Below, piece by piece: positions 1,695-20,939 of a stretch of DNA of 64,000 bases. A program made the position numbers and the translations under genes. Source of the DNA: Bryobacteraceae bacterium (GTDB taxonomy: Bacteria; Acidobacteriota; Terriglobia; Bryobacterales; Bryobacteraceae); assembly GCA_035508055.1 (NCBI GenBank), contig DATJNO010000096.1, positions 2,609 to 66,608 of the forward strand, in the 5' to 3' direction. Positions within the stretch are counted from its first letter, which is position 1; each line of letters starts with the position of its first letter. The notes below the pieces were generated by a model. That model did not search any database and was not told the DNA's origin. It worked only from the letters and a program-made list of their open reading frames with translations.

Positions 1695-2375
1695 TCAGTC
1701 CTGCGCGGACGGTGGCCTGCCCCCGGACACGAGATCGAGGCTGCGTCCTTTTACATATCTGAAAATGTGAATCACATCATCTTCGCTCAGGAAGCCGGCC
1801 CAGGCCGGCATTCCCTGTTCTTTGTTCCCTTCCATCGCCACGGATAGAAAGCCGCGCTGATTCATCCCGGCTGCGAGTGAGTGGCGCAGATCGGGCGCGA
1901 GCTGGCTGCCGCTGGCATCTGTGCCGTGGCAGCGGTAACAGTACGAGTTATAGAGCTGATAGCCATGGAAGACTTCCTTAGTCACTTTGGGAGCCTGCCC
2001 CTCCAGAAAGAGCGGAAAGTCCAGACGGACCGTGGTGCCGTCCTTGAGCGGGTAAGCGTACGTTTTCGTTTCACTCTGGCGGGGCGCACCCGCCGATTCG
2101 GTTTGCGACAGGATCCACTTCACGATCTCTGTCCGCTGCGGGTCCGTCAAATCCGGATGCGGTGTCATGCCGTTGCCGCCATCCCGTATTTTCGCGGCGA
2201 GCTTTGCGACGGCATCGGTTTGCCCGGCGTATCGCTTGGCCACCGCGTTATAGGCCGGCCCGACCACCTCGTGGTCCACAGCGTGACAGGAAGAACAATC
2301 GCTCGCCTGGATCAGCTTCTCGGCATCCTGCCCGAGGGCTGACAGGGCGATTGCGGCCAGAATGACGGCTTTCAT
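1695..2375 (-). CDS. xoxG: c-type cytochrome with two CxxCH motifs, dehydrogenase-associated (XoxG-like electron acceptor)
   Basis: 226-aa ORF with a signal peptide and the motifs CSSCH and CYRCH. It lies 18 nt upstream of xoxF and 4 nt downstream of xoxJ on the same strand. Confidence 0.8.
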   Translation of the reverse strand: MKAVILAAIALSALGQDAEKLIQASDCSSCHAVDHEVVGPAYNAVAKRYAGQTDAVAKLAAKIRDGGNGMTPHPDLTDPQRTEIVKWILSQTESAGAPRQSETKTYAYPLKDGTTVRLDFPLFLEGQAPKVTKEVFHGYQLYNSYCYRCHGTDASGSQLAPDLRHSLAAGMNQRGFLSVAMEGNKEQGMPAWAGFLSEDDVIHIFRYVKGRSLDLVSGGRPPSAQD

Positions 2376-2379
2376 CGAG

Positions 2380-3186
2380 TCAACGGTCCCCCCGTGGCGC
2401 GTACGACATCACGCCGCTTTCGGTCAAGATGGCGGTAAGCTCCGCCTCATGATTCGCGATGACATCGTCGAGCCTCTTCTTCAATGCATCATTGCCCGCG
2501 CGAACACCCATCGACATGGGGAAGGTGTACTGCTCCGGCGGCCCCAGGGCACGCTCATTCGGAACCGGAACGACCTCCAGATTTGGAGCGGCGCGCAGAA
2601 AGGCTCCGATGGCCGGCTGCCAGGTGATTAAGACGTCGATCTTTCCGCTATTCAGCGCCTCCAGCATGAGCGCCGGCGACTCGCCATTATCCGTTGCCAC
2701 GTCAAAGGCCATCGCTGCCGGAATCATTCCGCGCATTTTGAGAGCATCCTCGGCCGGTGTCTCGCGTTCAAAACCAACCTTCACTCGCTTCAGCACCGGT
2801 GAATCCATGCTCGTAATGTCGTATTTCCTGCTTTTATCGAAAACAAATACATACGACGAGATGTAGTACGGCCGCGTGGTCAGCTCTTCCCGGCTGGCAT
2901 AGGGAATGCTCATCACCACATCGCACTTCTTGGCGTCCAGGGTGGACGACAGGAATTGGGGAAATCCGCCGTGGCCGCGGTGACTCGCCCAGGTGTATTC
3001 CACGGTTTCACCCAAGACCTTGGCAACAGCCTCGGCAATTTTGTTTTCAAACCCCGCGCCCGCTCGGTTTGAATAGGGAAGATAATCCGGATCGGCGCAA
3101 ACCCCCAACGCTTGGGCGCGAACCTGGAACAGAACGGGCCACAGGCCTGCGAGAACCAACGGACTCACGATGGCGCTTAATCTCAT
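2380..3186 (-). CDS. xoxJ: quinoprotein dehydrogenase-associated periplasmic substrate-binding protein (MoxJ/XoxJ-like)
   Basis: 268-aa ORF with a signal peptide. LGVCADPDYLPYSN..GFENKIAEAVA..CDVVMSIPY..TRPYYISSYVFV matches my memory of the MoxJ-type SBP family. Confidence 0.8.
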   Translation of the reverse strand: MRLSAIVSPLVLAGLWPVLFQVRAQALGVCADPDYLPYSNRAGAGFENKIAEAVAKVLGETVEYTWASHRGHGGFPQFLSSTLDAKKCDVVMSIPYASREELTTRPYYISSYVFVFDKSRKYDITSMDSPVLKRVKVGFERETPAEDALKMRGMIPAAMAFDVATDNGESPALMLEALNSGKIDVLITWQPAIGAFLRAAPNLEVVPVPNERALGPPEQYTFPMSMGVRAGNDALKKRLDDVIANHEAELTAILTESGVMSYAPRGDR

Positions 3187-3294
3187 TCGTCTTCACGCCG
3201 GAGTTCGGTTCTGAGTTCGATGCTGCACCCCACCCCGTATTCGGCCGGAGTCAGCTACACATCATATACTGCTTTTCCGCGGTGCGCAGCGGTA

Positions 3295-3309
3295 GGTAGT
3301 GTCCTAAAG
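3295..3309. repeat. left terminal inverted repeat of the GIY-YIG cassette
   Basis: GGTAGTGTCCTAAAG, preceded immediately by CAGCGGTA. Confidence 0.85.
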
Positions 3310-3328
3310 GTGTCGGAGGCAATCCTGA

Positions 3329-3712
<384 letters not shown>

Positions 3713-3793
3713 CAGCGGTAGGCAAGGGCGGCGCTATCCGACGGCCGGCGCGGCTAGCGCTTGCACCTGCCGGATTGCATCCATGCGGTGCTC

Positions 3794-4507
3794 TCACCGT
3801 AGATGCTTGTTAAAAAAAGCCACGATGCGGCCCTGCGCATCTTTCGCCGAGGCTTCGTGGTATCCCATGCCGCCGATCTTGTGCATCAACAGGAACAGCA
3901 ACGGAATGTCTCGCCTGTCGTGGTCGTTGAGGAACGCGTGGCCCGCGGCGGGATATTCCTTCACTTCGTGCTCTACGCCCGCTTGGGTCAGCGCGCGGTC
4001 AAGGCGTTCCGCCGCGCCCCGCAGCGGCCGGTCCTTGGCTCCGAAACTTCCGATCACAGGACATGCTCCAACCAGGAACGTGTCGGCGTCGTCTGGCACT
4101 CTTCCGTAATTCACGCTCGACGCCGAAAATCCATGGCCCGGCGCCAAGAGCAGTGCAAACCCACCGCCCAGACAGAATCCGATCACGCCGACCTTTCGGT
4201 TGCAGTTCTCCTGTCCCGCAAGCCACACGCGCACCGCCTCGATCTCATCGAACGATCTTCCGCGCCGAGCCCGCAACTCGCGAAAAATCGTGCGCAGGCA
4301 TGTCATCTTGCGGCCCCAAGAGAACAAGTTTGGAGCCGCGGCCAGGAATCCCTCGCTCGCCAGCCACTCCACCTGATTCGCCAGATCGCGACTCACTCCC
4401 AAAACATCGTGGATCACGACCACGCCGGGCCGGAGGCCAGGTGCCTCAGGTCTCGCCACCAAGACCGGCAGGTTGCCTGAAGGGCTTGGGATCCGAATCT
4501 CAGTCAT
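3794..4507 (-). CDS. dienelactone hydrolase family alpha/beta hydrolase
   Basis: 237 aa. [41 protein letters not shown] is the typical DLH pattern. Confidence 0.8.
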
Positions 4508-4565
4508 CGAGTCTCATTGTCGCCGATTCGCCTGACGTGCGCGGGCAACCCAGGGTGGTTGGCAG

Positions 4566-6506
4566 TTAACAGTTTCCACAGACCAGCTTGAGACGGGCGG
4601 TGAAGTGGAAGGTGCTGCCGGCTCCGGGGAGGCTCTCCACCCAGATCTTGCCCTGCATCATCTCCACCAGCCGGGAAGAAATCGTCAGGCCCAGACCCGT
4701 TCCACCGAATCTCCGGCTCATGGAGCCGTCGGCCTGCGCGAAACTTTCGAAAATCAGCCGCTGTTTGTCTTGTGGAATGCCGATTCCGGAGTCCTTTACG
4801 TCCACCTGTAAGCGGATGGCCTCCGCGGATTCCGGTTCGGCATGGACGTCTACCTCTACTCCACCCTTTTGGGTGAACTTGATGGCATTGCCGACGAGAT
4901 TGACAATGATCTGGCGCAACCGGACGAAATCGCCTCGCAGCAGGGCGGGAACAGCGGAATCCACTTCGCAGGTCAAGCTCAGAGCTTTTTGTTCGGCGGC
5001 CGGTGACATCAGCTTAACAATATCGCTGAGGACTTGCCGGAGGTTGAAATCGGTCGGGTCCAAGTCCAGCTTACCCGCTTCGATCTTGGAGAAATCCAGG
5101 ATGTCATTGATGATTCGAAGTAACGAATCGCTCGACTCTTTAGCGATCTCGAGGAAATTCCTTTGTTCGGCAGTGAGCTCCGTCTCGAGCGCTAATTCCG
5201 TCATCGCTATGATCCCGTTCATGGGAGTGCGAATTTCGTGACTCATGTTGGCCAGGAACTCGCTCTTCAATCGATTGGCGGTTTCGGCTGCCTCCTTGGC
5301 CTGCCGCAGCGATTCTTCCGTACGCTTGCGCTCGCTGTTATCCTGCATCACCGCCCCCAGCGCGAATTCATCGCCCTCGGTCCGCACCATGAAGGCGTTC
5401 AGAAGGACGTCGATGGCCTCCCCCGTTTTGAAATTGCGGACTTGAGCTTCTCCCCGCCAGTGGCCGTCGCGTTTAGCGGCGGGAATCACTTCGGTCGTGA
5501 TCTTCTTCCAGGATTCTTCCGGATGAAAATCGGAGATCCGCATGCCAATCGCATCCTTCGGATCGCTGATCCCGACCAGCCTGCAAGCGCCCTCATTGAC
5601 GTATGTCACCCGGCCTTCCGGAGAAGCCAATGCGATGAAGTCTCTGGTGGATTCCACGAGCGAGGCGAGCATCTGCCGCTCCCGCTCAATTTTCTTACGC
5701 TCCGTGATGTCTCGCATGATGGTCGCTTGTCCCAGGATCTCGCCGTTTTCGCGATGCCGAACAAGGAACGAATGCGTCAGAACGTCCAGCATGTTTCCGT
5801 TCGCCGAAACAAGCTGCAGCTCACCCCGCCAATTGAGGCCTTGATTGACCGCCGGCCACGCTTCGTTTTGCACCGTGTCATAGGCCTTCTGCGTGAGGAA
5901 CTCGCGGATAGGCCTGCCGACTGCTTGTGCCGGATTGGACAGGCCGACCATCCTGGCCCCGCCCTGGTTCAGAAAGGCAACCGTCAGGTCGGCTGATCCG
6001 ATGCCGATCAGGTCTTCGCTGCTGTCGATGAGCGCAGACAGTTTCCGCCACTCGCGCTCGAACCGCTTGGATCCGCCGTCATCGACCACGGTTACGATCG
6101 CTCCGGCGACCTTCCCGGCCTCAATCAGGGGATGATACGAGCATTCGACGGAAAGGCCGGTCCCGTCTGCTCGCCGTAATGTCTCCTCGACCCGCATTGG
6201 TACTCCGGATTGAAGCTGCCGGTCCGCATAGGCAACAACGAGCTGGCGGACCTTCTTTCCGACCAACTCCGAGACGCTTTGGTAGCCCAGCAGTTCTGCA
6301 AACGCGCGGTTGGCGGCAATCAAAGTTTCGCCGGGGTCGATGGCGTATACCGGGACCGCTATGGCATCGAGCGCGCGACTGGAGAAGAGCCCTCCCGTGC
6401 CGCTCCTGGGTTTTCCGTTCTCCGGCGCCAGGTCCGCAAGGCAGAACAGCCTGTGAGGCTCAATGGCTACAGGCGCGGGCACGTATTCGGTCAATTGCGA
6501 CATCAT
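4566..6506 (-). CDS. multi-PAS sensor histidine kinase (HisKA + HATPase_c, no receiver domain)
   Basis: 646 aa with several PAS-like repeats, the H-box [18 protein letters not shown], and G-boxes DSGIGI / GGTGLGLTIS. Confidence 0.85.
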   Translation of the reverse strand: MMSQLTEYVPAPVAIEPHRLFCLADLAPENGKPRSGTGGLFSSRALDAIAVPVYAIDPGETLIAANRAFAELLGYQSVSELVGKKVRQLVVAYADRQLQSGVPMRVEETLRRADGTGLSVECSYHPLIEAGKVAGAIVTVVDDGGSKRFEREWRKLSALIDSSEDLIGIGSADLTVAFLNQGGARMVGLSNPAQAVGRPIREFLTQKAYDTVQNEAWPAVNQGLNWRGELQLVSANGNMLDVLTHSFLVRHRENGEILGQATIMRDITERKKIERERQMLASLVESTRDFIALASPEGRVTYVNEGACRLVGISDPKDAIGMRISDFHPEESWKKITTEVIPAAKRDGHWRGEAQVRNFKTGEAIDVLLNAFMVRTEGDEFALGAVMQDNSERKRTEESLRQAKEAAETANRLKSEFLANMSHEIRTPMNGIIAMTELALETELTAEQRNFLEIAKESSDSLLRIINDILDFSKIEAGKLDLDPTDFNLRQVLSDIVKLMSPAAEQKALSLTCEVDSAVPALLRGDFVRLRQIIVNLVGNAIKFTQKGGVEVDVHAEPESAEAIRLQVDVKDSGIGIPQDKQRLIFESFAQADGSMSRRFGGTGLGLTISSRLVEMMQGKIWVESLPGAGSTFHFTARLKLVCGNC

Positions 6507-6777
6507 GCCACACTAACGTTGCACGCTACTCGCCACAGGGAAACACTTGTTTCTCGAGCTGTTGCGGCGTCAAATTTGAACCGTCTGGCCCATCATCCCA
6601 GCTCTCGTGCTACGATCTTCACCTTATCGTCTTAAGTAGAACCACTGACTAGCCTGGCTGCTCCATTGGGGCAAATGGCGCAATGAGCCCTCGATGAAAT
6701 GACTGGGAACCTCTGTGGTTTCCAAGCGCCGCCGTTCATAAACGGACCCACGTGACGCGGGGCGGAAGGATTTCAGC

Positions 6778-9336
6778 TCACCATGTCTCAGCGCTCGTTT
6801 GCGAGTTCTTGTTTTCCATGGCCACCTGAATTACTTTGATGAGATCGTCGAGCTTGACGGGTTTGGAGATAAACGAGTTCATGCCTGCCTTTAAGCAGCG
6901 TTCGCGAGAGCCCTTGAGCACATCTGCCGTCATGGCGACGATTGTCGCCCGTGGAACTGGTCCTTCCCAGCGACGAATCTCTGCAGCCGCGTCGTAGCCG
7001 TCCATCTCCGGCATTTGACAGTCCATGAAGATCACATCGTAGGGCCCCAGGCGTGCCATGTCGAGCGCCTCCCGGCCGTTTCCCGCGACATCGGTCCGTA
7101 GTCCCAACCTCTCCAGCATCCGCACTGCAACCCGTTGATTGACAACGTTGTCCTCCGCCACGAGCACTCGAAGCGCCGAATCCGCAAATCTTCCAGCGGC
7201 GCGGGACGGAACGCCTTTCGTCTCGCTCGCATCGGCGGCGGCACTGGCGTTCTTTCTTGACCAGCCGGAAGTAAGTGCGTTCAGCAGCTGCGAAGCACGG
7301 ACCGGTTTGGCCAGGCACGCCGCGACTGTGTTCGAATGCAACTCTTTTGCTTCATTGAGGTGTCCGACAGAGGTCAGTATCACGACGATCGGTTTGTCCA
7401 GTGTTGAATCACTGCTGATCGCCATCGCCAGAGCGGCTCCGTTCATTCCCGGCATCTGATAGTCGGCGATCACGAACTGATAGGGGTCTCCCTCGGTTTG
7501 CCCTTTTCGGATCGCGTTGAGTGCGTCTTCGCCGGAAGCGAAGCTGCCGTTGCGCATTCCCCAGCCGGAGATCTGTTCGTGAATGACGCGGCGGTTGACC
7601 TCATTGTCATCCACAATCAGAACTCTTAAGTTCCTCAGATCAGCGGCCGGGATCGGGTCCGCCGAGGGGCCCTCATAAAGGCAAAAAGGGACCATCAACG
7701 AAAAGGTCGATCCACTGCCCAGGGAGCTCTCTACTTCAATTGAGCCACCCATCAACTGGGCCAGCTGCTTGGAGATCGCCAGGCCGAGCCCCGTGCCTCC
7801 GTATCTTCGCGTCGTGGAGGTGTCCGCCTGCGAGAATTTCATAAACAGAGATGCGATCTTGTCCTGGGGGATTCCAATGCCCGTGTCGGTTACCGCCAGC
7901 TGCATTTTGACGGTTCCCCCGTCAGCCACCACGGGCTTCACGGTGATCAGGATTTGTCCCGCGTGAGTGAATTTGACGGCGTTGCCAACCAGGTTCGTGA
8001 CGATCTGGCGGATTCGGCCGCTATCCCCTTTGAAGTGCCGGGGGACTAACGGCGGATACTGAACCAGCAGGTCGAGCCCCTTCTCCTCCGCTCTCGGCGC
8101 AAGCATTGCCGCAACTTCTTCGATTAACAGGCATAGATCAAAAGGATGCGACTCAATCAATAGCTTGCCCGCTTCGATTTTGGAAAAGTCCAGAATGTCA
8201 TTGATCACCGTGAGTAGCGCGTCGCTCGAATGTCGAATGGTCTCGGCGTATTCCCGCTGTTCGTTGGTTAGCTCGGTATCGAGTAAGATGTCGGTCATTC
8301 CGATGACGCCGTTCATCGGCGTGCGGATCTCATGGCTCATATTGGCCAGGAATTCACTCTTGGCTGAAGCAGCGCTTTCAGCTTCACGCCGCGATGCTCG
8401 CAGCAGCCGGGCTTGCCAGACCAGCAAGATCAGCAGGCTGGCCATGAGCGCCATGGCGGCAATCAAGTATCGATTTCTGCGTTGCGCCTCCGCGAGATAA
8501 TAGGTGGAAAGGACTTCGGTGTCAGGATACAAATGCCAGCGTAAACAGATCGCGCTAAAAGTTCCATCCTTGATCAAATCGATGATCTCCTGACGGATTT
8601 CATCCGCAGCCTGCCGGGCATCCGGACGGACGAACGAAGCGCCGACACCAAAGCCCATATCACCGTGCTCCAGTTGCACGAAGCGCAAGCGCGAAGTGCG
8701 ACAGGCTTCCAAGTGCCGCAAATCTGCAAGTTCGTTACTTCCCGCCGAAAGGATGCCTGCCTCGGCGGCGCCGAGACAGACCGCCCTGAGCACGCTCTCG
8801 GCGGATGATCCTGTAGTGACCAGTCGGGCGCGAGGCAGCGCCGAACGCGCCAGGCCCTGATAGAGCGTGATGTTCGAGCGTGCGACCGAACGGCCTGCGG
8901 TGTCCTCGGGGCGGTAGATCTTGCTGGTTTCCAGAGTGACCAGCCAGTTACTCTCGATGTCCCAAGGTTCGGAAATATAAAGGATCTTGCGCCTTTGCGG
9001 GAGGTCCCCCAGCGAGGTCCACAGGTCCACCTTTCCACTCTGGAGTCCCGCTTCCGGGCCCTCTGGCACGGGAACCCACTCGAGGGGGATTCTCAGCCGC
9101 CGGCATGCTTCGGAGAAGATGTCGATGTAGGGACCTTCGGGAGATCCATCCGGAGCCACCGTGTTGTAAGGAGGCGTGTCAACGTAGCCGACACGGAACG
9201 GCTTCGGGTCCTTAGCCGGGCCCCCTAAACGCTTGGAAACCAGTCGCCACCCTCCCCAGGCGGCGAGCGCGAGGAAGAGCCCAACCAGGAACCGGGACTT
9301 CCGGCCGCCAGCCTGAAACTTGGCCGTCCACCGCAT
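6778..9336 (-). CDS. hybrid sensor histidine kinase: periplasmic solute-binding-like domain, TM, HisKA, HATPase_c and two receiver domains
   Basis: The ORF runs 6778..9546. I prefer the start at Met71 (ATG 9336-9334, [27 protein letters not shown]), which gives a TM anchor. It has the H-box [18 protein letters not shown] and two REC domains ([12 protein letters not shown].., [26 protein letters not shown]). Confidence 0.85.
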
Positions 9337-9569
9337 GTTTAGAGATCGGCATTTGCTTCCGTGGGCTTCAGACGAGGGGTCTTTGCTGCAGTGACTTGGA
9401 CCGCCGGACGCCGCCGGGGCGGGGTGGTCCCTGGGATCTTGGACAATCCGCCCGTAGCCCAAGGCCGGCCGCGCGATCAGTCGGCAACGAGACAGTACGT
9501 TGAGGAATTGGGCACATTCGGGCATAGAAACGATTCGAAGCGGCAAACCATTGAATCAAAGCAGTTTTG

Positions 9570-9591
9570 GTGGCGGAGAGAGAGGGATTCG
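9570..9591. repeat. 22-nt exact direct copy of the 3' end of tRNA-Ser(GGA) (distal att-like site)
   Basis: GTGGCGGAGAGAGAGGGATTCG at 9570-9591 is identical to 19701-19722, which covers the CCA, discriminator base, acceptor 3' strand and T-arm of the tRNA at 19702-19791. The two copies have the same orientation. Confidence 0.85.
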
Positions 9592-9774
9592 GTCCTTGAC
9601 ACGTCTTTGAAAACAGGCAAGTTATTGACTTCCCATAGACCGCACAACGCATTAAACGCATGGAACACCGGTTTCACTACACACCTATTACACACGAGGC
9701 CAGAACACGATGAATCGGAGTCAAGGACGGTGCAGAGCGGGCGTGATGTTGGTGCCTCGCGGTACGATTTCAGC

Positions 9775-10638
9775 GTGGCCTACAGTGTCTTTATCAGTTA
9801 TATCCTGGGGAAGACCCGTACCGGGAAGGAGTTGGTGGCGCGCGCGATTCACCGTTTGAGTCCCCGCAAGAACTTTCCTTTCGTCACTCTGAACTGTGCC
9901 GCCATTCCGACCGGCCTTCTGGAAAGCGAACTGTTCGGCTACGAAAAAGGAGCCTTTACCGGCGCCTTGTCGCAAAAGATCGGCCGTTTTGAGATGGCGC
10001 ACCGGGGGACGTTGTTTCTGGATGAGGTGGGGGACATCCCGTTGGATCTGCAGCCGAAATTGCTGCGGGCGTTGCAGGAGAAAGCGTTTGAGAGGCTGGG
10101 CGGCACCCGGACGATCCCCATTGACGTCCGGCTGGTGGCGGCGACCAACCGCAATTTGACACAGATGATGGGAGACAAACTCTTCCGCAGCGATCTCTAT
10201 TACCGGCTGAAGGTCTTCCCCATCACCACACCTCCGTTACGCGATCATCCCGAGGACATACCGGTACTCGTCCGGCATTTCACCCAGAAGTACGCTCGCG
10301 AAGCGAACAAGCAGATTGAAAAGATTCCGTCGGAAACGATGCGAGCCCTGGTGAGTTGGTCATGGCCGGGGAACGTGCGCGAGCTCGAAAACTTCATTGA
10401 AAGGTCGGTCATCCTTTCGCGGGGCCCGGCACTCCGTGCACCCTTGGCCGAAATACGTGCAGATGGATCAGAAGCCGCCAGCAGCAGCACGCTCGAGCAG
10501 GTGGAGCGTGAGCATATCGTCCGTGTGTTGCGCGCGGCAGGTGGCGTGGTCAGCACCGCCGCTACCCGGCTGGGTGTGCCCCGCACGACCTTGAACGCCA
10601 TGATGCGGAAGTTGGGGATCTCCCGCAAGGATCTTTAA
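9775..10638 (+). pseudogene. 5'-truncated sigma54-dependent transcriptional activator (AAA+ core and Fis-type HTH; receiver/N-terminal domain and start of AAA+ missing)
   Basis: Recognisable only from ..VFISYILGKTRTGKELVARAIH onward. The Walker A motif is degenerate (GKTRTGKE versus the usual GESGTGKE). GAFTGA, Walker B LFLDEVG and the C-terminal HTH are intact. The upstream part of the 9361 ORF is non-homologous, low GC, and overlaps the kinase gene. Confidence 0.6.
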
Positions 10639-10711
10639 AGATGCGGATCGGCGCACATTGCAACCTAGTCCTCATGCCCCGCGGCGGCACGACGATCCGC
10701 CTCTCTCGACT

Positions 10712-10993
10712 CTACGTCGCCGCCGCAACCGTACGATACAACCAGGTTCTTCCGTCCGGATCTCGCCGCGAGACCACCTCTCCCTCTTTGACCAGCTCAT
10801 CGAGAAACATGGACGCGACGGCACCGTAGGTTCCACTGCCGTACTCTGACCAGAGTCCCAAGGCCTCCTCAATCTGGTTCCGTCCTAGCCAACGGTCCTG
10901 GTTTTCTGCGAGAACCTCGCCGATTGCAGTTTTGATGAGAATCATGCCGGTTTGAGCCTTCTCTTTAGGGCTCAGCTCTGATAGTTGCGACAT
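10712..10993 (-). CDS. hypothetical small protein, possibly winged-helix-like
   Basis: 93-aa ORF. The C-terminal LDELVKEGEVVSRRDPDGRTWLYR resembles a wHTH recognition helix plus wing. I recognise no family. Confidence 0.4.
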   Translation of the reverse strand: MSQLSELSPKEKAQTGMILIKTAIGEVLAENQDRWLGRNQIEEALGLWSEYGSGTYGAVASMFLDELVKEGEVVSRRDPDGRTWLYRTVAAAT

Positions 10994-11164
10994 ACGGTGA
11001 TCCTATCATGCGATGCCGCCGTGGCTTTCGCAGTGGCCGGGGCTTCCCAGCGCTTCGTGTTACACTAAACGTGCTTAACAATTTTGGCATCGTCGCATTA
11101 GTCCGGCCCAACCGCCCTCGTCCGATCCTGCCCCGATTCACGAATTCTAAGAAAAAGGAAAAGC

Positions 11165-11467
11165 ATGAAAAACATTTTTGTAGGAAACCTCAACTTTGGG
11201 GCGACCGAAGCCGCGGTTCGATCTCTGTTCGAGACGTACGGAACCGTCGACCGGGTGAACCTGGTCACCGACCGGGACACCGGACAGGCGCGAGGGTTCG
11301 GATTTGTCGAGATGAGCGTCAGCGCGGATGCCGATCGCGCCATCGCTGAACTGAATGGCAGGGACCTCGACGGCAGGACCCTGAACGTCAATGAAGCTCG
11401 TCCGAAACCGGAGCGTTCATTTGGCGGCGGCGGTGGCGGCGGCCAGCGCCGGAACAATCGCTATTAG
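11165..11467 (+). CDS. RRM-type RNA-binding protein with a Gly-rich tail
   Basis: RNP-2 motif IFVGNL, RNP-1 motif RGFGFVEM, and C-terminal GGGGGGQRRNNRY. The SD-like sequence AAGGAAAAG lies upstream. Confidence 0.85.
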   Translation: MKNIFVGNLNFGATEAAVRSLFETYGTVDRVNLVTDRDTGQARGFGFVEMSVSADADRAIAELNGRDLDGRTLNVNEARPKPERSFGGGGGGGQRRNNRY

Positions 11468-11911
11468 CCGATTCCAACGAGCCGAGGGGCGGCCCCAAGC
11501 GTCGCCTCTTGAAACCATCCGTGGCTGTTTTCCCGCTCGCGATTCACGGTGGAGGGTCAAATGCAACTACTCAGTCGTGTCAAACCGCGACAAGTCTCAA
11601 GCTGCAATTGCGGATCCGATCAGTTGCCAACGGTTGCCCCATTTACGCCCTGTTTACTTCCGCTCATCAGCCTCCGCAATCCCACGCACCGGCGTCCTTC
11701 GAAAAGGAGCCATTGCGAGTAGGCCTGGCTGGCTTAGCGTTGTCGAAGGCGCTTGGCGGCTCGCGGCGGACCCTGGGTGGACCAGCAAGTTCTTCATCGC
11801 CAGCGGATTGCTGTCGCACTGCCAAGTGTGGTTCACAGCTGCGATCCTTATGCGCACATCCTCCCGGGGCCTGAGTACGTGGCTGGAGAAACAACAGTGA
11901 AGGATTCCTCT

Positions 11912-12070
11912 ATGAATGAACCGATCGTGGTGCAGCAACAAACTGGCGAAGCACAGGTAAAGGCCGAGCGACGGCATTTAGTTTGGCGTATCCTTTCCTC
12001 ATTCGGAATGATTGCCGGTGTGGTTGCAGCGGCAACGATGATCGCCCATTGGATGCGGGCAATGCGCTAA
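11912..12070 (+). CDS. hypothetical small membrane protein (52 aa)
   Basis: Internal ATG of ORF 11753..12070, preceded by GAAGGA. It has one hydrophobic helix, FGMIAGVVAAATMIAHW. Confidence 0.3.
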   Translation: MNEPIVVQQQTGEAQVKAERRHLVWRILSSFGMIAGVVAAATMIAHWMRAMR

Positions 12071-12406
12071 GGCTGGACGCACCTCGAACATCGTCCTGCG
12101 ATGGCTGATCCCAAAGGGCGGGTTTTGACTGACCGCCATTGGTCAATTGACCGCAACTGGTCACTGTGCGAAGGCCTTGTCGCCTCCAAACCGATTCCCA
12201 ATCGAGTCGGCTCAACAGATGACGAAGCTGGCTCGACGCGTGCACTGCGGAAGAGTGTCGCCCCATGGATCAACTAGGCCGAAGCAAGTTGACCCGGAAA
12301 GAAAATTGAAAATGTGGAGCAGGTTCGTTCTGGTTGGAGGTGCGATGATCGCGATGTTCCAAGCCTTTCATTCCCGGCAGTTCGCCTTTCGAACGGTGTT
12401 CGCACA

Positions 12407-12676
12407 ATGGCGGAGTTAGCCGGCATCGGTGCATCCGCGGACTGGATAAGCGCCACCCCAAGTCAGGTGGAATGGGCAGAGCGTATCCAGCGCCAGGTTA
12501 ACGCGGAGTTCGATCGTGTGGCGGCGTCATTCCGGGCGATTGCCGGCAAACAGAGTGACGGCAAGCGCGCCGATACGCAAGCCTGGCAGGAAATCGGCGA
12601 CCAGGTGCGGCAGATGATATTTCATGATCCCTGCTACCAGGCGATCCAGAGCAACAGCTCGGCACGACGACGATGA
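12407..12676 (+). CDS. hypothetical protein (89 aa)
   Basis: Internal ATG of ORF 12314..12676. Its composition is plausible for coding sequence, but I recognise no family. Confidence 0.3.
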   Translation: MAELAGIGASADWISATPSQVEWAERIQRQVNAEFDRVAASFRAIAGKQSDGKRADTQAWQEIGDQVRQMIFHDPCYQAIQSNSSARRR

Positions 12677-12712
12677 AACGTCGCATTTCACTTTTGGAGG
12701 CAAACAGCAAGT

Positions 12713-14474
<1,762 letters not shown>

Positions 14475-14478
14475 CGGC

Positions 14479-14670
14479 ATGATCCGAGGCACAGCCGGTC
14501 TATTCTCTGCACGCTGTCCGCATTGTAGATCTGTCGACTTTAGAACAGTAGGCGTTCGAAACGCCATCGAGAGCGCTCTCTACTGGCTCCTCCAACCCTA
14601 TCGGTGCTCCCTTTGTGGTCATCACTTTTTCCTATTTCGATGGCAAGCTCCCGTTGAGGAACCCGTTTAA
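14479..14670 (+). CDS. small zinc-ribbon protein (63 aa)
   Basis: Two CxxC pairs (CPHC..CSLC). It starts 4 nt after the groEL stop. Confidence 0.5.
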   Translation: MIRGTAGLFSARCPHCRSVDFRTVGVRNAIESALYWLLQPYRCSLCGHHFFLFRWQAPVEEPV

Positions 14671-14713
14671 GCGCGAACCGGGATAGCTTTGGTGGGCGCC
14701 CGTGCCCCTCTGC

Positions 14714-16195
14714 ATGACATGGTCCGAGTATCACGAATTTACCAAGCACAGCATTGAATCGCTGAGGCGCGCGCCGCATGTTCTCGACTGGGCGAACATG
14801 CCCGATCCGTTTCGCCAGTACGAGGGCGCGCCCGTACTCGACCTGCCAGCAGATCCACCCATCCTTGAAACGCCGGCACTAGAAGTCCTTCACGATATCC
14901 CGGGTAGTGCGTCTGCCCATGACGGTCCGGCGTTTCTTTCGGAACTGTTGTTCTATTCTGCCGCGATCAGCGCGTCCAAACGTGTTCCCTCCACTGGATA
15001 CCGGTACGCGTTGCGCGTGAATCCGTCCTCCGGGAATCTGCACCCCACCGAGTTGCACTTCCTCACACGCGGGCTGAAGGAATGGCCCGACGGCTTATAT
15101 CATTACCGTCCTTCCGCACACATGGCCGAGCAGCGCGCCCTGGGCGACGTCGGCTGGAAGTGGGCTGGCAGCTCTGCGCCGGTCGTGTTCGTCCTGACGA
15201 GCATTGCGTGGCGCGAGGCGTGGAAGTACCGTGACCGCGCATATCGCTACTGCTTGCATGACATCGGACACGCCTGGCAAGCTCTCGTGCTGGCCGCAAG
15301 CGCCGCCGGGTGCGATAGCACTGCGTTCGGTCACTTTCAGGACGACTCCGTCGCGTCGCTCTGTCGCCTGCATGAAGATGAGTGGCCGATGCTCATTGTG
15401 GAGCTGCGTGGCGGCTCGATCCCAACGAGCGAACCAGCCGCCCGCGAGACTGTTTGGCACGGCGGCGAGGCGAATCAGCTCTCCCGGGAAAGAACCGCTT
15501 ATCCGGGGATTGACGGGATTCACAGCTCCACGAAACTCGGGAACGGCATGTCGCGCGGCATACTCACCGCCGATCCGGCTCCCGTGGGCTCCGGCGAGAT
15601 CAAGCTGCCTCCCCCAGCCGTATCGCGCCTCCCTTTTGGCGAGGTCGTCCGGAAGCGGCGTTCGGCACTCGACTTCGTGGGTGGAATGCGAGCGATGTCG
15701 CTGGCGCAGCTCTCGGCCATCCTTGCTGTAACGGCCGTGCCGCTCTTTGCAGATTTTTCCGGGCCACGTTTCATCCAGCTCTATTTGTACGTTCATCGCG
15801 TCGACGGCCTCGAACCTGGCGTGTACAGATTCTGGCCTGAGCGTGCGGAGTTGGAGCGGATCCAGAGTGGCGACCAGCGTGTCGCGGCTGCTGGACTAAG
15901 CCTGGGGCAGGACCTCGCCGGTAACGCGTGCGTGGCATTCTCGATGATCGGCGATCTGGAGCGTGCCGCCCGCGCCCATGGTGACCGCGGTTATCGCTAT
16001 GTGCACTTCGAAGCAGGCGCCATTGGCCAGCGCCTGTATCTCGCCGCAGAAGCGCTCGGCCTAGGGGCGACCGGAATCGGCGCGTTCTACGATGAGGAGG
16101 TGCACCGCTATCTCAATCTGCAGCCGGAGCAAGGGCAGGTGGTATACCACTTCGCGATCGGCTATCCGGTTCCGGATCCGCGCCTCGAGGCATGA
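14714..16195 (+). CDS. SagB/ThcOx-type two-domain nitroreductase-family dehydrogenase
   Basis: MTWSEYHEFTKHS.. is an N-terminus typical of SagB-type dehydrogenases, and there are two nitroreductase-like halves. An alternative in-frame GTG start lies at 14702. Confidence 0.75.
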   Translation: MTWSEYHEFTKHSIESLRRAPHVLDWANMPDPFRQYEGAPVLDLPADPPILETPALEVLHDIPGSASAHDGPAFLSELLFYSAAISASKRVPSTGYRYALRVNPSSGNLHPTELHFLTRGLKEWPDGLYHYRPSAHMAEQRALGDVGWKWAGSSAPVVFVLTSIAWREAWKYRDRAYRYCLHDIGHAWQALVLAASAAGCDSTAFGHFQDDSVASLCRLHEDEWPMLIVELRGGSIPTSEPAARETVWHGGEANQLSRERTAYPGIDGIHSSTKLGNGMSRGILTADPAPVGSGEIKLPPPAVSRLPFGEVVRKRRSALDFVGGMRAMSLAQLSAILAVTAVPLFADFSGPRFIQLYLYVHRVDGLEPGVYRFWPERAELERIQSGDQRVAAAGLSLGQDLAGNACVAFSMIGDLERAARAHGDRGYRYVHFEAGAIGQRLYLAAEALGLGATGIGAFYDEEVHRYLNLQPEQGQVVYHFAIGYPVPDPRLEA

Positions 16196-16220
16196 TCTCG
16201 CGATGGTTGGCTAACGGCCC

Positions 16221-17372
16221 TCACCCAACAACCTGCTGCGGGAATCGCAGCACCTCCCAGCTCTTCCATAAAGCCATGGGCCAACTGTATGAGCGATAGG
16301 ACAGCCCGTGCTCAGCGCAGAAGGCTTGCACCGCCACGCTGACCTGCGGATAGTAGACGTGGCTGACATTCGGAAATAAGTGATGCTCAACTTGATACTC
16401 GAGACCGGAGCACAGGAATCTGCCTAGCCAGCCCGTTCGGAAACTCACTGTTCCCGCTGTCTGAACAGCGAAAAAATCCGCACCGTTCCGGGCTTCGGCT
16501 GTCGTACGCTGTGCCTCGGCCGGAAAATGTCCGGGCGCTAAGATCGCGTACATTGCGTACCCCAGCAACATGGTTCGCAGAATATAGAATCCGGCAACTG
16601 CCTGTATCGGCCAGAGTAAGAGCGGCACACCGATCCACATCCCATAATGCAGGATCATGGCGCTGAGATCGATCCAGTGCGCGGACTTTCGTCCTTTGGA
16701 ATGGCGGAGCATTCCTATCAGGTGCGTCCAACCGGCCATCTGTATGCTGAAACAATTCAGGGCGAGCGCCAACGGAAACAGCCAGAATTGCAGGCGGTCG
16801 TAATAGACGCGACGCAGGCCGAAGCTGGCGTTAACCTCGTCTGCCGTGATCGCAAACCACGGCAACAGGTCGGCGTCGCCGTCCACTCCGACCACGTTCG
16901 GTGCAGGATGATGCAGAACCACGTGCTTGTGCCACCAGTACGTAGCCGACAGGCCCAGGAACATGGGATAGCCAAAATAGCTTAACGCCTCATTTACCCA
17001 GCGCTTGTCGCTGGTCGCGTAGTGCGTGGAGGTGTGCGTATTGGTCCCCACGCCCATGCACCCGAAAGTCGAGAGCAGAAGCCCCAGCACCTCCAGGGCC
17101 CGATTGTGGCAGGTCAAGAAGATGGCGATGCCTGCCAGCGCGACTGCCACGTGGATCGATAGCTCGAACACGATCCGGTTCGTCGCTTTCTTGTCCCAGC
17201 CGCGGCGGGCGAACTCTCTGCGTAATTCCGTGACTGCTTCGACGGTCGTCACTATGTATAGCTGCAATTCCAGCCTAGCGGGAAGTGAGGCGAAGCGTTG
17301 TAAGACTTGTGTAATTTCATGAACGAATTGCGGTAGCGCGCGCCGCGCGGCAATTCCAGCATAATTGTCCAT
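16221..17372 (-). CDS. membrane fatty-acid desaturase, front-end-like (third His box is QxxHH)
   Basis: His boxes HTSTH, HKHVVLHH and QVEHHLFP, with multiple TM segments. Confidence 0.8.
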   Translation of the reverse strand: MDNYAGIAARRALPQFVHEITQVLQRFASLPARLELQLYIVTTVEAVTELRREFARRGWDKKATNRIVFELSIHVAVALAGIAIFLTCHNRALEVLGLLLSTFGCMGVGTNTHTSTHYATSDKRWVNEALSYFGYPMFLGLSATYWWHKHVVLHHPAPNVVGVDGDADLLPWFAITADEVNASFGLRRVYYDRLQFWLFPLALALNCFSIQMAGWTHLIGMLRHSKGRKSAHWIDLSAMILHYGMWIGVPLLLWPIQAVAGFYILRTMLLGYAMYAILAPGHFPAEAQRTTAEARNGADFFAVQTAGTVSFRTGWLGRFLCSGLEYQVEHHLFPNVSHVYYPQVSVAVQAFCAEHGLSYRSYSWPMALWKSWEVLRFPQQVVG

Positions 17373-17722
17373 TCCGAGCGCGACTAAGCAACCTGGACGC
17401 AGTTGTTATGGAAATCGTCCCGGCACGTCAAGACTATGTCAACGCCGGTTCTCCTTCCGATCCAGCAGCTTGCACCGGATTCGAAGTTGCACCGGTTTGT
17501 AGCGTTATGCCTGCGTTCGATGCAGCAAGATGGCAAACTTTTGGCAAGGTCCTGTCGAGAATGGCCGCCTGCTCCGCCTTCATGACTTCCGTTTCTCGCG
17601 ATCTTGCATGATCCTGCATAGTCTTGTCTAAGGCTCATCGAATATTTTGTCAAACAAATCGTGAAGCTTTGGTCGTCCGCTCAGACGCCGGTCTCGGCCA
17701 GAGTTGAATCCGCTCACTTCCT

Positions 17723-18112
17723 TCAGTGAGCGTGATAATCTGGCACTTCAACCAGGAGGCCCTCGATCATCTGATAGTGCTTCCGATTGAGCGTGACAAG
17801 CGTAAGCGCCTTCTCCATCGCCGTGGCTGCTATCAGGGAATCGAACACGTGGAGCCCGTGCGATTTTGGGTAGGTTTTCAAAAGTTGGTACGCTCCCATT
17901 CCGATGCTGTCGCTGAGCGGGATTACCGGATACGTCGCCAAGAAATTGTCGATGGTAGCAAGTTCCCGCTTGTCTCGTGCACCGACAATGAGCTCCATCG
18001 GGGTGACTTGCGAGAGCGCCCAACGCTCCGGGAGACCGTCGACGTATTTGATTGCGGCCGGCTTGCCGCGCGACACGTCAATCAGCACGTTGCTATCGAT
18101 CAAGAAGGGCAC
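17723..18112 (-). CDS. vapC: PIN-domain toxin VapC
   Basis: MPFLIDSNVLIDV.. with conserved acidic residues. It lies downstream of a small antitoxin gene. Confidence 0.85.
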   Translation of the reverse strand: MPFLIDSNVLIDVSRGKPAAIKYVDGLPERWALSQVTPMELIVGARDKRELATIDNFLATYPVIPLSDSIGMGAYQLLKTYPKSHGLHVFDSLIAATAMEKALTLVTLNRKHYQMIEGLLVEVPDYHAH

Positions 18113-18136
18113 ACAATTGGTGGTGTGGCTCTGAAA

Positions 18137-18358
18137 TCAGCCGTGGAGTTCGCGGCGAAGCCGATTGATGTAATCGACGCTGCCAGCCATGTCCTCGCGG
18201 TCGTTCCACATGCCGGCGAAGGGCGAATCGGCAATTGAGGGCGGCCTATTCGTGGGCGCTTCCGAAGGCAGAAGCACTTCGACGACCGTGCCCTCTTTGA
18301 CCGGCACGTCCTCAAGGGGCTTGAAAACGCCCTTCTCGTATCTCGCGTGGATCGTCAT
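18137..18358 (-). CDS. DUF104/AF2212-like antitoxin
   Basis: Internal Met of ORF 18137..18454: MTIHARYEKGVFKPLEDVPVKEGTVVEVLL. It ends 24 nt upstream of vapC. Confidence 0.7.
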   Translation of the reverse strand: MTIHARYEKGVFKPLEDVPVKEGTVVEVLLPSEAPTNRPPSIADSPFAGMWNDREDMAGSVDYINRLRRELHG

Positions 18359-18610
18359 GAACGTACCCTCAGTAGACTCCGCATCTGCGCTCCTCGAAGC
18401 GTCGGTTGCTGGGCGACGTGAAAGCGCTGCTTGCCAGCACGAAGTGCTCGGCACGTTTTTAGATCCGTTCCGTTTGGTTGGGCCCTCACAGCTACCAATC
18501 CAGTCATCTCAGCATTCGTAAAGCGAGACAGGAGCCTTGGAAGCGAAGTTCGAAGTGGGAAAGCGATTGACGCCCTGAATACACAACGGTTCGAACTCGA
18601 ACCGTGACGT

Positions 18611-19570
18611 CTATGCCGGCGCTGTCGCACTAACTCCTGCCCGGTCGACGGTGTACCCAATGGCATCGTAGCCTTTCAGCCGTCTTTCAAACATTCTGGC
18701 CAGCATCGGCACATTCGGGTCGACGTAATCGTATACCTGCACGACGCGCTTCCCATCGTGGAGGCGATGCAGCCGTCCGACGTACTGCTGCAGGGTGCCT
18801 TTCCACGAGATCGGCAGCGCAAGAAACAGGGTGTCCAGCCGCGCGTCATCAAAGCCTTCGCCAATATAGCTTCCCGTGGCGAGAATCACACGGCTCTCGG
18901 TTTCTGGACTGAGGCCAAGGCCTCAGCCGTAGTTCGGCGCTGCTTTTTGCCCATTCCGCCCTTAAGAACAAAAACGTGCTTTGCAAATCCTTCCACGGCG
19001 GTCACGAAGAATTCCAGATGCTCTTTGCGTCCTGTGAGCAACAAAGGCGACCGTCCCGCTTGCATGGCACTTCGAAGATCAGCCCCGATCATCGCGTTGC
19101 GAGCCGAATCATTGACCAAGGCCGCGTAGACGTCTTGAATAGTCAGGTCCGTCATCTCAGCCGGCATTCGGAAATCCGTGTGCCGCGGGATCACCTTATG
19201 TTCGAAAGGCGTCGTTTGGGTCATCGCGCGTCGGCGTCGCGGTCAGGCCGACTATGTATCGTGCCTTCACCTGCTTCATCACCTGTTCGAAAGTAAAGGC
19301 TGAGATGTGATGGCATTCGTCCACGATAACGTGCCCGTACTCGGCAACGAAGTCCTTCACTTCGTCTTTTCGGTGAAGGCTTTGAATCACAGCAACATCG
19401 ACCAGTCCGGTTCGATCCGATCTCCCACCACCAATCCGTCCGATCGTGTTCGCCGACATCGCGAGAAACATCGCTAACCGTTCATGCCATTGGTCGAGCA
19501 GCTGCCGACGAAGCCGCCCTTCTCCAACTGGCTCAATATACGGGCGGCTCGGGAATCGGAGCAGCAGCGC
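18611..19570 (-). pseudogene. disrupted, 5'-truncated SF2 (DEAH) helicase
   Basis: Three ORF fragments lie in different frames: ..IVDECHHISA..GLTATPTR (19196-19570), TTPFEHKVIPRHTDF.. (18886-19224), and ILATGSYIGEGFDDARLDTLFLALPISWKGTLQQYVGRLHR (18611-18889). Motif I is missing. Confidence 0.75.
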
Positions 19571-19701
19571 ACGGCCACCGGCGCAATTAGAGCCATGGCG
19601 ACGGTAGAGATTGAGAGCCAAAGTGACCCTCTTTCTACACGCATTACCCAAAACTGCCCAAATCTCTCTGGGCTGCGACCTGTAAACTATTGATTCTAAA
19701 G

Positions 19702-19791
19702 TGGCGGAGAGAGAGGGATTCGAACCCTCGATAGAGTTTCCCCTATACACGCTTTCCAAGCGTGCGCCTTCAACCGCTCGGCCATCTCTCC
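19702..19791 (-). tRNA. tRNA-Ser (anticodon GGA), class II with a long variable arm, CCA encoded
   Basis: GGAGAGATGGCCGAGCGGTTGAAGGCGCACGCTTGGAAAGCGTGTATAGGGGAAACTCTATCGAGGGTTCGAATCCCTCTCTCTCCGCCA. The acceptor, anticodon (loop TTGGAAA) and T arms all pair. Confidence 0.93.
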
Positions 19792-19848
19792 GGGTCTGGT
19801 GGATGGCGGCAACGCCGCCCGCGCACTCAGTTTAGCATGGCGACTGCG

Positions 19849-20070
19849 CTAGACCGCATGCCGGCGCGTACGCGAGAGCAGTTCCTCAGCGCGCGCCAGG
19901 GCGCGCTGTTCGGCGTCCTCGCGGGTATCGGCCACCACCCGCGAAAGCGAGGCTCCGGGCGACACGTTGTCGGCTTTGGCGTGCCACTTTTCGCCCAGCT
20001 GGTAGACGGTGAGATTCACCTGCCAGCCGGCGATCTCCAGTTTGCGTTCCGAATAATTTTCGGGCTTCAC
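19849..20070 (-). CDS. hypothetical small protein (73 aa) translationally coupled to the sulfurtransferase gene
   Basis: The GTG start (20070-20068) overlaps the rhodanese TGA stop as GTGA. Sequence: [36 protein letters not shown]... The track ORF 19849..20319 is an over-extension. Confidence 0.45.
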
Positions 20071-20939
20071 GCCTGCACCGCCAACTTGGCTGCGCCCTTC
20101 TCCACCGGCGCGCCCACCAGGTTGCCCCACTCGGTCCAGGAGCCGTCGTAGTTCTGAACGTTTTTCACGCCCAGCAGATACTTCAGCACGAACCAGGTAT
20201 GGCTGGAGCGCTCGCCGATGCGGCAGTAAGCGATCACGGGAGTAGACTCGCTGACGCCTTCGGCGCCGTACAGCTTTTGGAGATCTTCGATGGATTTGAA
20301 GGTGCCGTCCTCGTTGCAAGCCTTGCCCCAGGGGACGCTATGGGCGCCGGGAATGTGGCCGCCGCGCTGGCACGTTTCGGGCAATCCCGGAGGCGCCAGA
20401 ATCTCGCCGCTGAACTCCTGCGGGCTGCGCACGTCGATCAGGACCGCGCCGTTGGATTTTTGCGCCTGGTGCACCTGCGCCAGGAACGCCCGGATCGAGT
20501 AGTCTGGCCCGGTGGCCTGATAGGGAGCCGGCGAGGGCGTTGCCGTGGAGGGCTTGGTGTCCAGATCGCGTCCTTCCGCGAGCCACTTCTTGCGCCCGCC
20601 ATCCATGATACGCACGTCCTTGTGGCCGTACATTTTCATCTGCCAGAAGGCCCACGCGGCGAACCAGTTGTTATTGTCGCCATACAGCACCACGGTGGTG
20701 TCCTTGCCGATGCCGGACTGTGTCATCAACGCTTCGTACTTGTCCTTCGGCAGGATGTCGCGGACTATGGTGTCGCAGAGCTGCGTGTTCCAGGCCCAGG
20801 CGACGGCGCCCGGCACATGCCCCTCATCGTAGGCTTTCGTATCCACGTCGATTTCCGCGACGCGCACGTTCGGATCCTTGCCGTGAGCCGCAACCCAGTC
20901 GGTGCTCACGAGGACCTCCGGATGCGAGTAATTTCCCAT
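20067..20939 (-). CDS. thiosulfate/3-mercaptopyruvate sulfurtransferase (tandem rhodanese domains)
   Basis: MGNYSHPEVLVSTDWVAAH.., active-site loop YCRIGERSSHTW. Start chosen at Met10 of the ORF. Confidence 0.85.
   Translation of the reverse strand: MGNYSHPEVLVSTDWVAAHGKDPNVRVAEIDVDTKAYDEGHVPGAVAWAWNTQLCDTIVRDILPKDKYEALMTQSGIGKDTTVVLYGDNNNWFAAWAFWQMKMYGHKDVRIMDGGRKKWLAEGRDLDTKPSTATPSPAPYQATGPDYSIRAFLAQVHQAQKSNGAVLIDVRSPQEFSGEILAPPGLPETCQRGGHIPGAHSVPWGKACNEDGTFKSIEDLQKLYGAEGVSESTPVIAYCRIGERSSHTWFVLKYLLGVKNVQNYDGSWTEWGNLVGAPVEKGAAKLAVQA

Follow-up and report, generated by a model that had tools for sequence, protein, structure and literature searches.

How did a 10.1-kb tract of DNA bounded by two copies of a tRNA gene's 3' end come to lie in the genome of a soil acidobacterium, with no intact integrase gene inside it? 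The question is raised by a window of 64,000 nucleotides (the whole stretch of DNA analysed here; GenBank assembly GCA_035508055.1, contig DATJNO010000096.1), which according to protein and locus searches belongs to an uncultured soil member of the Bryobacteraceae (Acidobacteriota). An initial annotation, made from the sequence without database searches, had proposed a decayed genomic island integrated site-specifically at a gene for tRNA-Ser(GGA). This proposal is supported by an integrase gene at the same position in a sister genome, by the occurrence of the repeat in viral contigs, and by the variability of the DNA downstream of the tRNA gene. We consider it likely, with good confidence, that the tract (window positions 9592-19700) is the remnant of one or more integrative elements that integrated at the 3' end of tRNA-Ser(GGA) and were later immobilised.

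The repeated tRNA-Ser 3' end and the integrase remnant

The single tRNA gene that ARAGORN detects in the window is an intact tRNA-Ser(GGA) on the reverse strand (19702-19791; Rfam tRNA model, 61 bits). Its 3' end is contained in a 22-mer (GTGGCGGAGAGAGAGGGATTCG) of which the window has exactly two copies, both on one strand (9570-9591 and 19701-19722); they enclose 10,109 bp and constitute the region's sole long exact repeat. Read on the tRNA strand (CGAATCCCTCTCTCTCCGCCAC), the repeat starts with the C of the TTCGAAT T-loop and comprises CGAAT of the T-loop, the 3' strands of the T-stem (CCCTC) and of the acceptor stem (TCTCTCC), the discriminator base G, CCA and one further nucleotide; the identity of the copies ends at 22 nt. 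Two matches of this kind were obtained in none of 100 dinucleotide-preserving shuffles, and an exact T-loop-to-CCA copy of 22 nt is thus not expected by chance. The exact direct repeat in the geometry of attachment (att) sites, as described in the initial annotation, was thereby confirmed by search, ARAGORN and Rfam. The 22-mer is also not a repeat dispersed within the window, an option that had been considered at the same time: no third copy was detected in the window with up to three mismatches, nor, by script, with up to five. Apart from the tRNA, no Rfam family was matched in the tract, and a motif comparison, which included 9592-9801 versus the spacer on the attL side, revealed no integrase arm-type repeats common to the attL and attR sides above chance. 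The putative empty-site junction would join the tRNA-Ser end ...CTCTCTCCGCCAC to CAAAACTGCTTTGATTCAATGG, and the putative circle junction would read ...TGTCAAGGAC followed by the 22-mer and TTTAGAATCAATAG.

The same 22-mer is found in 40 contigs of IMG/VR, at the end of a tRNA-Ser gene in 25 of them and outside any tRNA gene in the other 15. Ten of these 15 were tested, and in all ten the nearest large open reading frame (ORF) encodes a tyrosine integrase, mostly 70-200 bp away, which indicates that phages widely carry the segment as an attachment site. A repeat from T-loop to CCA is also the commonest tDNA recombination segment in a survey of Klebsiella islands (bioRxiv 10.1101/2020.11.02.365908). 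In a tblastx comparison of the tract with the 40 viral contigs containing the 22-mer, the tRNA was the sole match.

A chimeric join at the conserved tRNA segment during metagenome assembly could in principle mimic such a repeat or tract, and two contigs are suggestive in this respect: a short one (L005) terminates at the tRNA, and another (L003) turns into a different groEL-like sequence at its end. However, same-population contigs from three ENA assemblies and two JGI metagenomes are 99.8-100% identical to the window without indels (99.8% identity and zero indels across 20.9 kb), and attL is spanned by four assemblies (L001-L004) and attR by three (L224-L226), from differing samples and pipelines. 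Because both junctions recur in independent assemblies, the chance of an assembly artefact is negligible; we conclude that the structure is genuine and that the population is fixed for it.

The closest relative found, hereafter the sister genome (L206/L207; ENA ERZ27256499 k141_4976687 and JGI Ga0335085_10000103), was recognised because two long contigs carry a homologue (90% identity) of the rhodanese gene that lies beside the tRNA gene. Its upstream block (mreBCD-PBP2-rodA-RNase G-rhodanese-orf73-tRNA-Ser) shows 86.2% nucleotide identity to the window over 11.2 kb. The sister genome encodes, 80 bp after the tRNA, an intact tyrosine integrase of 440 amino acids (L206 12034-13356; PF00589, weak Xer-type NCBIfam matches) with the N-terminus MALNLYRRHGSNCAGGRAL. 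The window retains a spacer of the sister type and the first 56 nt of this integrase gene, with 14 differences in 136 nt and with 18 of 19 residues identical to the sister N-terminus (tblastn), until the match stops at window 19566, which corresponds to L206 12089. It is followed by 60 bp of a gene for a 209-amino-acid protein (L206 13827-14456) that lies two genes beyond the integrase. The succession of these 56 nt and a match to L206 13942-14001 indicates a single clean deletion of 1,852 bp relative to L206, which took the integrase from codon 19 onward, an ORF of 87 amino acids and codons 1-39 of the third gene. The catalytic residues of tyrosine recombinases (R-K-H-R-H/W-Y) are present in the sister gene and absent from the window, where they fall within the deleted 1,852 bp. 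The earlier statement that no integrase exists in any frame therefore holds for an intact gene but not for the 56-nt 5' remnant at 19566-19621, and the immobilisation for want of an integrase, postulated together with it, can now be attributed to the mapped deletion.

A second junction lies at 19505/19506, where homology to a helicase begins. This three-fragment pseudogene, already recognised in the initial annotation, was recovered with a ResIII match in three frames; when joined, its fragments align colinearly with PDB 7clg_A (residues 300-391 and 504-558), and about 120-300 N-terminal residues are absent, an estimate that varies with the solved superfamily 2 (SF2) helicase used as yardstick. 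Over the 196 element-derived nucleotides, the window and the sister genome show 92.9% identity, versus 86.2% for the core (binomial P of about 0.003); this higher identity fits an element that moved after the divergence of the hosts. In the sister genome the island (11954-20873) contains tandem tyrosine integrases of 440 and 413 amino acids together with PIN_3, HTH_17, prenyltransferase-like, DUF362, AAA and SLT genes, and it possibly represents two stacked elements or one that resembles an integrative and conjugative element (ICE). Relatives of the sister integrase were found neither in IMG/VR (pattern scan) nor among GenBank phages, and the comparison with plasmids yielded only Xer-like recombinases of about 25% identity.

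The repeat, the tRNA gene, the integrase remnant, the deletion junctions and the homologies of the cargo are direct observations, and from them we infer the original integration, the order of the deletions and the arrival of the cargo with the element. The attP of the element would have held a 22-nt copy of the T-loop-to-CCA end of the tRNA, and recombination by the tyrosine integrase would have restored a working tRNA gene at attL (19701-19722) and displaced the previous 3' end by 10.1 kb, where it forms attR (9570-9591). The 1,852-bp deletion would then have immobilised the element by removing the integrase from codon 19, and a second deletion would have fused the surviving 60 bp to the middle of the helicase gene, which would also have gained two frameshifts. 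Since both repeats are still perfect, excision by a related integrase encoded elsewhere in the cell may be possible. The features of the tract are compiled in Table 1.

Table 1. Features of the tract and its boundaries in window coordinates (aa, amino acids; dN/dS, ratio of nonsynonymous to synonymous substitution rates)
Feature	Position	Strand	Basis
attR, displaced 22-nt tRNA-Ser 3' end, far boundary of the tract	9570-9591	-	exact match to 19701-19722; present in L224-L226
Island-end segment of unknown origin, 210 bp	9592-9801		between attR and the activator homology, which begins abruptly at 9802
Sigma54-dependent activator, 5'-truncated: AAA+ from Walker A, lid, HTH_8	9802-10638	+	Pfam Sigma54_activat from profile position 26
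ORF of 93 aa	10712-10993	-	gene call in L001/L224
RRM-type RNA-binding protein, intact	11165-11467	+	Pfam RRM_1 7e-22; 96% aa identity to L213, dN/dS 0.14
Degraded spacer with patchy remains of ORFs intact in L213 (213, 52, 108, 161 aa)	11468-12712	+	blastn blocks colinear with L213, L210
groES (Cpn10), intact	12713-13024	+	Pfam Cpn10 4e-34; 99% aa identity to L213
groEL paralogue (Cpn60), in-frame deletion of 54 codons	13056-14474	+	three-way alignment with L213 (528 aa) and L210 (526 aa)
Zinc-ribbon-like ORF of 63 aa, kept beside SagB	14479-14670	+	79% / 69% aa identity to L213 / L210; weak Zn_ribbon_8
SagB/ThcOx-family dehydrogenase, intact	14702-16195	+	Pfam Nitroreductase; NCBIfam TIGR03605 2e-50
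Fatty-acid desaturase, intact	16221-17372	-	Pfam FA_desaturase 5e-24; 93% aa identity to the partial gene ending L213
vapBC: PIN toxin (17723-18112), AF2212-like antitoxin (18137-18358)	17723-18358	-	Pfam PIN 1e-12, AF2212-like 6e-9; L001 gene calls
SF2 (ResIII/DEAH) helicase pseudogene, remainder split across three frames	18611-19505	-	ResIII 4e-14 from profile position 62
60-bp fragment, codons 40-59 of a wHTH/nucleotidyltransferase-like gene	19506-19565	-	100% identical to L206 13942-14001
Integrase 5' remnant, 18 codons + 2 nt (next base completes codon 19); start ATG->TTG	19566-19621	-	tblastn against L206
tRNA-integrase spacer, element-supplied; terminator-like hairpin (19673-19656) just past the tRNA	19622-19700	-	colinear with L206 spacer
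tRNA-Ser(GGA) (19702-19791) and attL (19701-19722; last 21 nt of the tRNA + 1)	19701-19791	-	ARAGORN, Rfam

Occupancy of the tRNA-Ser(GGA) site in relatives and the left edge of the tract

In every relative examined the conserved block ends at tRNA-Ser(GGA), and the same tRNA closes the mreBCD-PBP2-rodA-RNase G-rhodanese-orf73 cluster in five relatives. The DNA after the tRNA differs in each relative, with the upstream genes conserved: in L206/L207 it comprises the two integrases with PIN, HTH_17, AAA and SLT genes, in L208/L209 small ORFs, DUF309, cytochrome c and pyrroloquinoline quinone (PQQ) genes, in L215 an IS481-family transposase gene 45 bp beyond the tRNA (L215 10079-11373), and in L218-L222 an abutting outer-membrane protein gene followed by kdsB-pyrG-kdsA, where the site looks unoccupied. 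The tract itself is present downstream of tRNA-Ser in none of these relatives. In view of this varied DNA, tRNA-Ser(GGA) is a synteny breakpoint and an integration hot spot in the Bryobacteraceae, and the IS481 transposase in L215 is a further sign that the site attracts mobile DNA.

Several observations weigh against an integrated element with the proposed boundaries. The empty site that the initial annotation had predicted, with the kinase gene from the left side of the tract adjoining tRNA-Ser and the rhodanese gene, was found in no relative compared, although it was sought by scanning the rhodanese against one genome per species and the kinase N-terminus against JGI metagenomes, and by looking up kinase homologues. 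The rhodanese scan showed the tRNA synteny to be shared only by a 1.5-kb contig. Kinase orthologues in JGI metagenomes (75% and 69% identity) have no adjoining tRNA, and kinase homologues at 80% and 72% amino acid identity have unrelated neighbours and no tRNA-Ser(GGA) beside them; in one relative, kinase and tRNA-Ser(GGA) share a contig but are oppositely oriented and separated by about 90 kb, and the sister organism carries the kinase and tRNA-Ser on different contigs. A common ancestral flank was not recognised either, as the genes that follow the tRNA in L218 (outer-membrane protein, kdsB, pyrG, kdsA) are absent from the window and from the other relatives. Pfam and NCBIfam domain searches detected no excisionase, conjugation or phage structural gene in the tract; no tract ORF has a domain of the ICE hallmarks (relaxase, coupling protein, type IV secretion), and structural, packaging and lysis genes as hallmarks of a prophage are missing from the tract as well. 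Moreover, the sister island was read over 9 kb only, so that a link between its integrase family and exactly this 22-nt repeat is presumptive. The cargo consists of typical Bryobacteraceae genes under purifying selection with no foreign signature: dN/dS is 0.06-0.25 for the genes that can be compared with relatives (vapBC is not among them), and the Acidobacteriota contain more than 100 homologues of SagB (76-87% identity), which means that the cargo is not exotic.

Finally, composition does not set the tract apart from the DNA to its left. The GC content is 0.584 at 1-9569, 0.581 in the tract and 0.625-0.629 to the right of the tRNA; it falls from 0.625 to 0.58 exactly at the tRNA, where tetranucleotide usage shifts too, and there is no step at 9570, the first 19.7 kb being alike and atypical relative to 19800-64000. 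The profile of 9.6-19.7 kb against its flanks, proposed earlier as a check, thus revealed the expected step at the tRNA and none at the left repeat, so that it is the repeat alone that places the left boundary.

This profile raises the question whether the repeat at 9570 is an internal joint of a larger variable region or tandem array that extends past the kinases and a PQQ-dehydrogenase cluster, with the tract as the tRNA-proximal module. Such a refinement would be compatible with an integrated remnant, and we regard it as possible, with the odds nevertheless against it. Besides the GC content of 0.58 and the tetranucleotide usage, which are equally atypical throughout 1-19.7 kb and change only at the tRNA, it would account for a hybrid kinase that has no conserved neighbours in any relative and whose synonymous divergence (dS) from the sister-organism orthologue is 1.05, compared to 0.35-0.88 for core genes. 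The tRNA-abutting genes of L218-L222 are absent not only from the window but also from the 2.6 kb beyond its left end, and the sister island has two integrases in tandem. On the other hand, the window contains no third att copy even at 5 mismatches, the only mobility-type feature in 1-9569 is a 418-bp element with terminal inverted repeats (TIRs), accessory genes commonly have a lower GC content without being island-borne, and no shared ancestral flank can be defined among the relatives. Contigs that reach 2.2-2.6 kb past the window start contribute a PQQ dehydrogenase, an ORF of 176 amino acids and an FAD oxidase, with no recognisable core flank.

The cargo block and its decay

The gene inventory of the initial annotation (activator, RRM protein, groES, deleted groEL, SagB, desaturase, vapBC and helicase) was borne out by Pfam, and the RRM, groES, SagB, desaturase and vapBC genes are intact in the tract. 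Window positions 9802-16210 are colinear with L210/L211 and 11047-16670 with L213, at 81-94% nucleotide identity. In these relatives the genes are full-length, namely a PAS-sigma54 activator of 703 amino acids, small ORFs, groES, a groEL paralogue of 526-528 amino acids, the zinc-ribbon ORF and SagB/ThcOx; the desaturase and RRM genes of the block are found in L213. A role of the cargo in temperature or stress adaptation, as suggested in the initial annotation, is speculative. The 93-amino-acid ORF, by contrast, has no Pfam, NCBIfam or PADLOC match and no homologue in any fetched locus.

Compared with these relatives, the window copy has suffered at several places. The activator has lost codons 1-425 and with them the PAS sensor part; what remains, with the Walker A motif GKTRTGKE, is 93.5% identical at the amino acid and 87% at the nucleotide level to codons 426-703 of the 703-amino-acid L210 gene. 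Several deletions of roughly 70-240 nt are found in the window between RRM and groES, and about 260-300 nt are missing after groEL. The 54-codon deletion in groEL, which is flanked by two GD dipeptides and at which the blastn blocks overlap (13301-13313), removes the GDGTTTAT nucleotide-binding (ATP-binding) loop that is kept by L213 and L210, and the window protein thus lacks the intact equatorial GDGTTTAT loop of a functional group I chaperonin GroEL. The paralogue family to which it belongs has no GGM tail and ends with ..ICGVVEE. In a relative-rate test, 11 changes were specific to the window and 12 to L213, which means either that the groEL deletion is recent or that the test is underpowered. 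The copy of the block is decaying by deletion: the 425 codons of the activator, the groEL loop and the small ORFs that separate RRM from groES in relatives are already gone; these multiple deletions suggest that it is dispensable and probably redundant. Neither a sigma54 -24/-12 promoter nor a CIRCE element was found in the tract.

Two observations concern the chaperonin genes beyond this. The block of groES, groEL paralogue, zinc-ribbon ORF and two-domain SagB/ThcOx occupies 12713-16195 in the window, 7495-11476 in L210 and 3401-7358 in L213; it is found in the three closest relatives recovered (L210, L211, L213), and at the more distant SagB loci L212 and L230 SagB stands alone in unrelated neighbourhoods. 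In contig L003, the last 68 nt (11601-11668, at about window 14342 within groEL) diverge inside a conserved stretch into a different groEL-like sequence, a hint that the genome or the community contains a second groEL.

The full-length state of the block in L210/L211 and L213, where no tRNA or integrase was found near it, is what one would expect if the stretch from activator to desaturase were ancestral at this locus and the element had contributed no more than the 2-3 kb closest to the tRNA (integrase remnant, helicase and vapBC), with the copy at 9570 being, for example, a stray tRNA fragment or the product of a rearrangement. The composition, which equals that of the left flank, and the normal purifying selection on the genes agree with this as well. 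However, direct att repeats topologically enclose whatever integrated, the exact T-loop-to-CCA copy at 9570 is hard to reconcile with chance given the shuffles, and the many deletions point to a copy that is dispensable and probably redundant. In addition, SagB and rhodanese never occur on one contig among the best 120 matches for each, including the sister tRNA contigs of 110 and 275 kb; thus the block is not normally located near this tRNA, and no relative has it there. An ancestral position of the block is therefore quite improbable compared with its inclusion in the integrated remnant.

How the block reached the tRNA site is a further question. Its dS relative to L213 is 0.10-0.31, versus 0.35-0.88 for core genes relative to the closest core relative found (among 5.8 billion proteins). 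This lower divergence hints at horizontal movement, but it is equally conceivable that L213 belongs to a closer relative, the core genes of which are missing from the recovered sequences. Because the dS of the block to L213 is below that of any core gene, one may speculate that a module of RRM, groES-groEL, zinc-ribbon ORF, SagB/ThcOx, desaturase and sigma54 activator moves between Bryobacteraceae as tRNA-Ser-targeting cargo, and that the window holds a redundant, recently acquired copy which is being dismantled. We consider this scenario rather unlikely as a whole.

Relation to known islands and observations on neighbouring DNA

Insertion at tRNA genes, direct repeats of 16-20 bp and functional or cryptic integrases are standard features of genomic islands, whose size is given as 10-200 kb, smaller ones being termed islets (Juhas et al. 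2009, PMC2704930). The tract resembles such islands in its location at a tRNA 3' end, its perfect direct repeat, a cryptic integrase remnant by the tRNA, and accessory cargo with a toxin-antitoxin system. Its GC content is below that of the core on the right of the tRNA, and it is missing after tRNA-Ser in the relatives compared, none of which has the kinase beside the tRNA. It differs from typical ones in that its 10.1 kb are at the lower size limit, only 56 nt of the integrase are left, insertion sequence and transfer genes are missing, the cargo is common in its own family, and the composition is the same as in the left flank (PMC2704930). As in the t(m)DNA survey (bioRxiv 10.1101/2020.11.02.365908), the repeat spans T-loop, T-stem, acceptor 3' strand and CCA. 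In the asn tDNA hot spots of Klebsiella pneumoniae, which are occupied by different islands in different strains (PMC4891358), the conserved upstream context likewise ends at the tDNA and the downstream part varies per genome; unlike the host of those hot spots, ours is an uncultured soil acidobacterium known only from metagenome contigs, and, as a virgin site with the same far flank was not recovered, occupancy is deduced from the repeat and the integrase remnant.

The most direct comparison is that with the sister island, which shares the same tRNA, the 22-nt 3' end followed by C, an 80-bp spacer, 56 nt of integrase and the 100%-identical 60-bp segment with the window. In contrast to the window, the sister island is intact at its tRNA end, and past the 60-bp segment nothing is shared within the 9 kb read. 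Cryptic prophages, for example those of E. coli K-12, have kept their att sites and lost mobility genes by deletion or frameshift, and some of their cargo is intact. The tract is similar in that it keeps both att sites and some cargo, but unlike these prophages it contains no phage structural or replication genes.

As a decayed tRNA-associated genomic island, the tract is an ordinary and tidy case of a well-known process, and it leaves our knowledge of genomic islands unchanged. It is unusually precisely documented because of the sister genome, and it thereby illustrates, at base-pair resolution, the fixation of an integrative element in an uncultured soil acidobacterium: a single deletion of 1.85 kb removed the integrase, and both att sites are still perfect. 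Furthermore, it marks tRNA-Ser(GGA) as a synteny breakpoint and an integration hot spot in the Bryobacteraceae, and the conserved accessory chaperonin-SagB block may merit a study of its own.

The DNA on both sides of the tract contains several additional features. The gene orf73 (73 amino acids; 19849-20070, reverse strand) overlaps the rhodanese stop codon and follows rhodanese in all relatives; with a dN/dS of 0.014 versus L206 it is a real small gene without family assignment. At the opposite end of the window, positions 1-3186 (reverse strand, running off the window into L224/L225) encode a PQQ-dependent dehydrogenase (598 amino acids), a di-haem-type cytochrome c and a periplasmic binding protein in a xoxF-G-J-like order, and beyond the window start this cluster is followed by the ORF of 176 amino acids and the FAD-linked oxidase. 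The 418-bp element next to this cluster (3295-3712) has perfect 15-bp TIRs (GGTAGTGTCCTAAAG), an 8-bp target duplication (3287-3294 and 3713-3720) and an ORF of 109 amino acids (3374-3703) with no Pfam match. It is found in the window and in L225 and is precisely absent from L224 and L226 of the same population; this presence and absence within one population identifies it as an insertion polymorphism, possibly caused by an active small TIR element.

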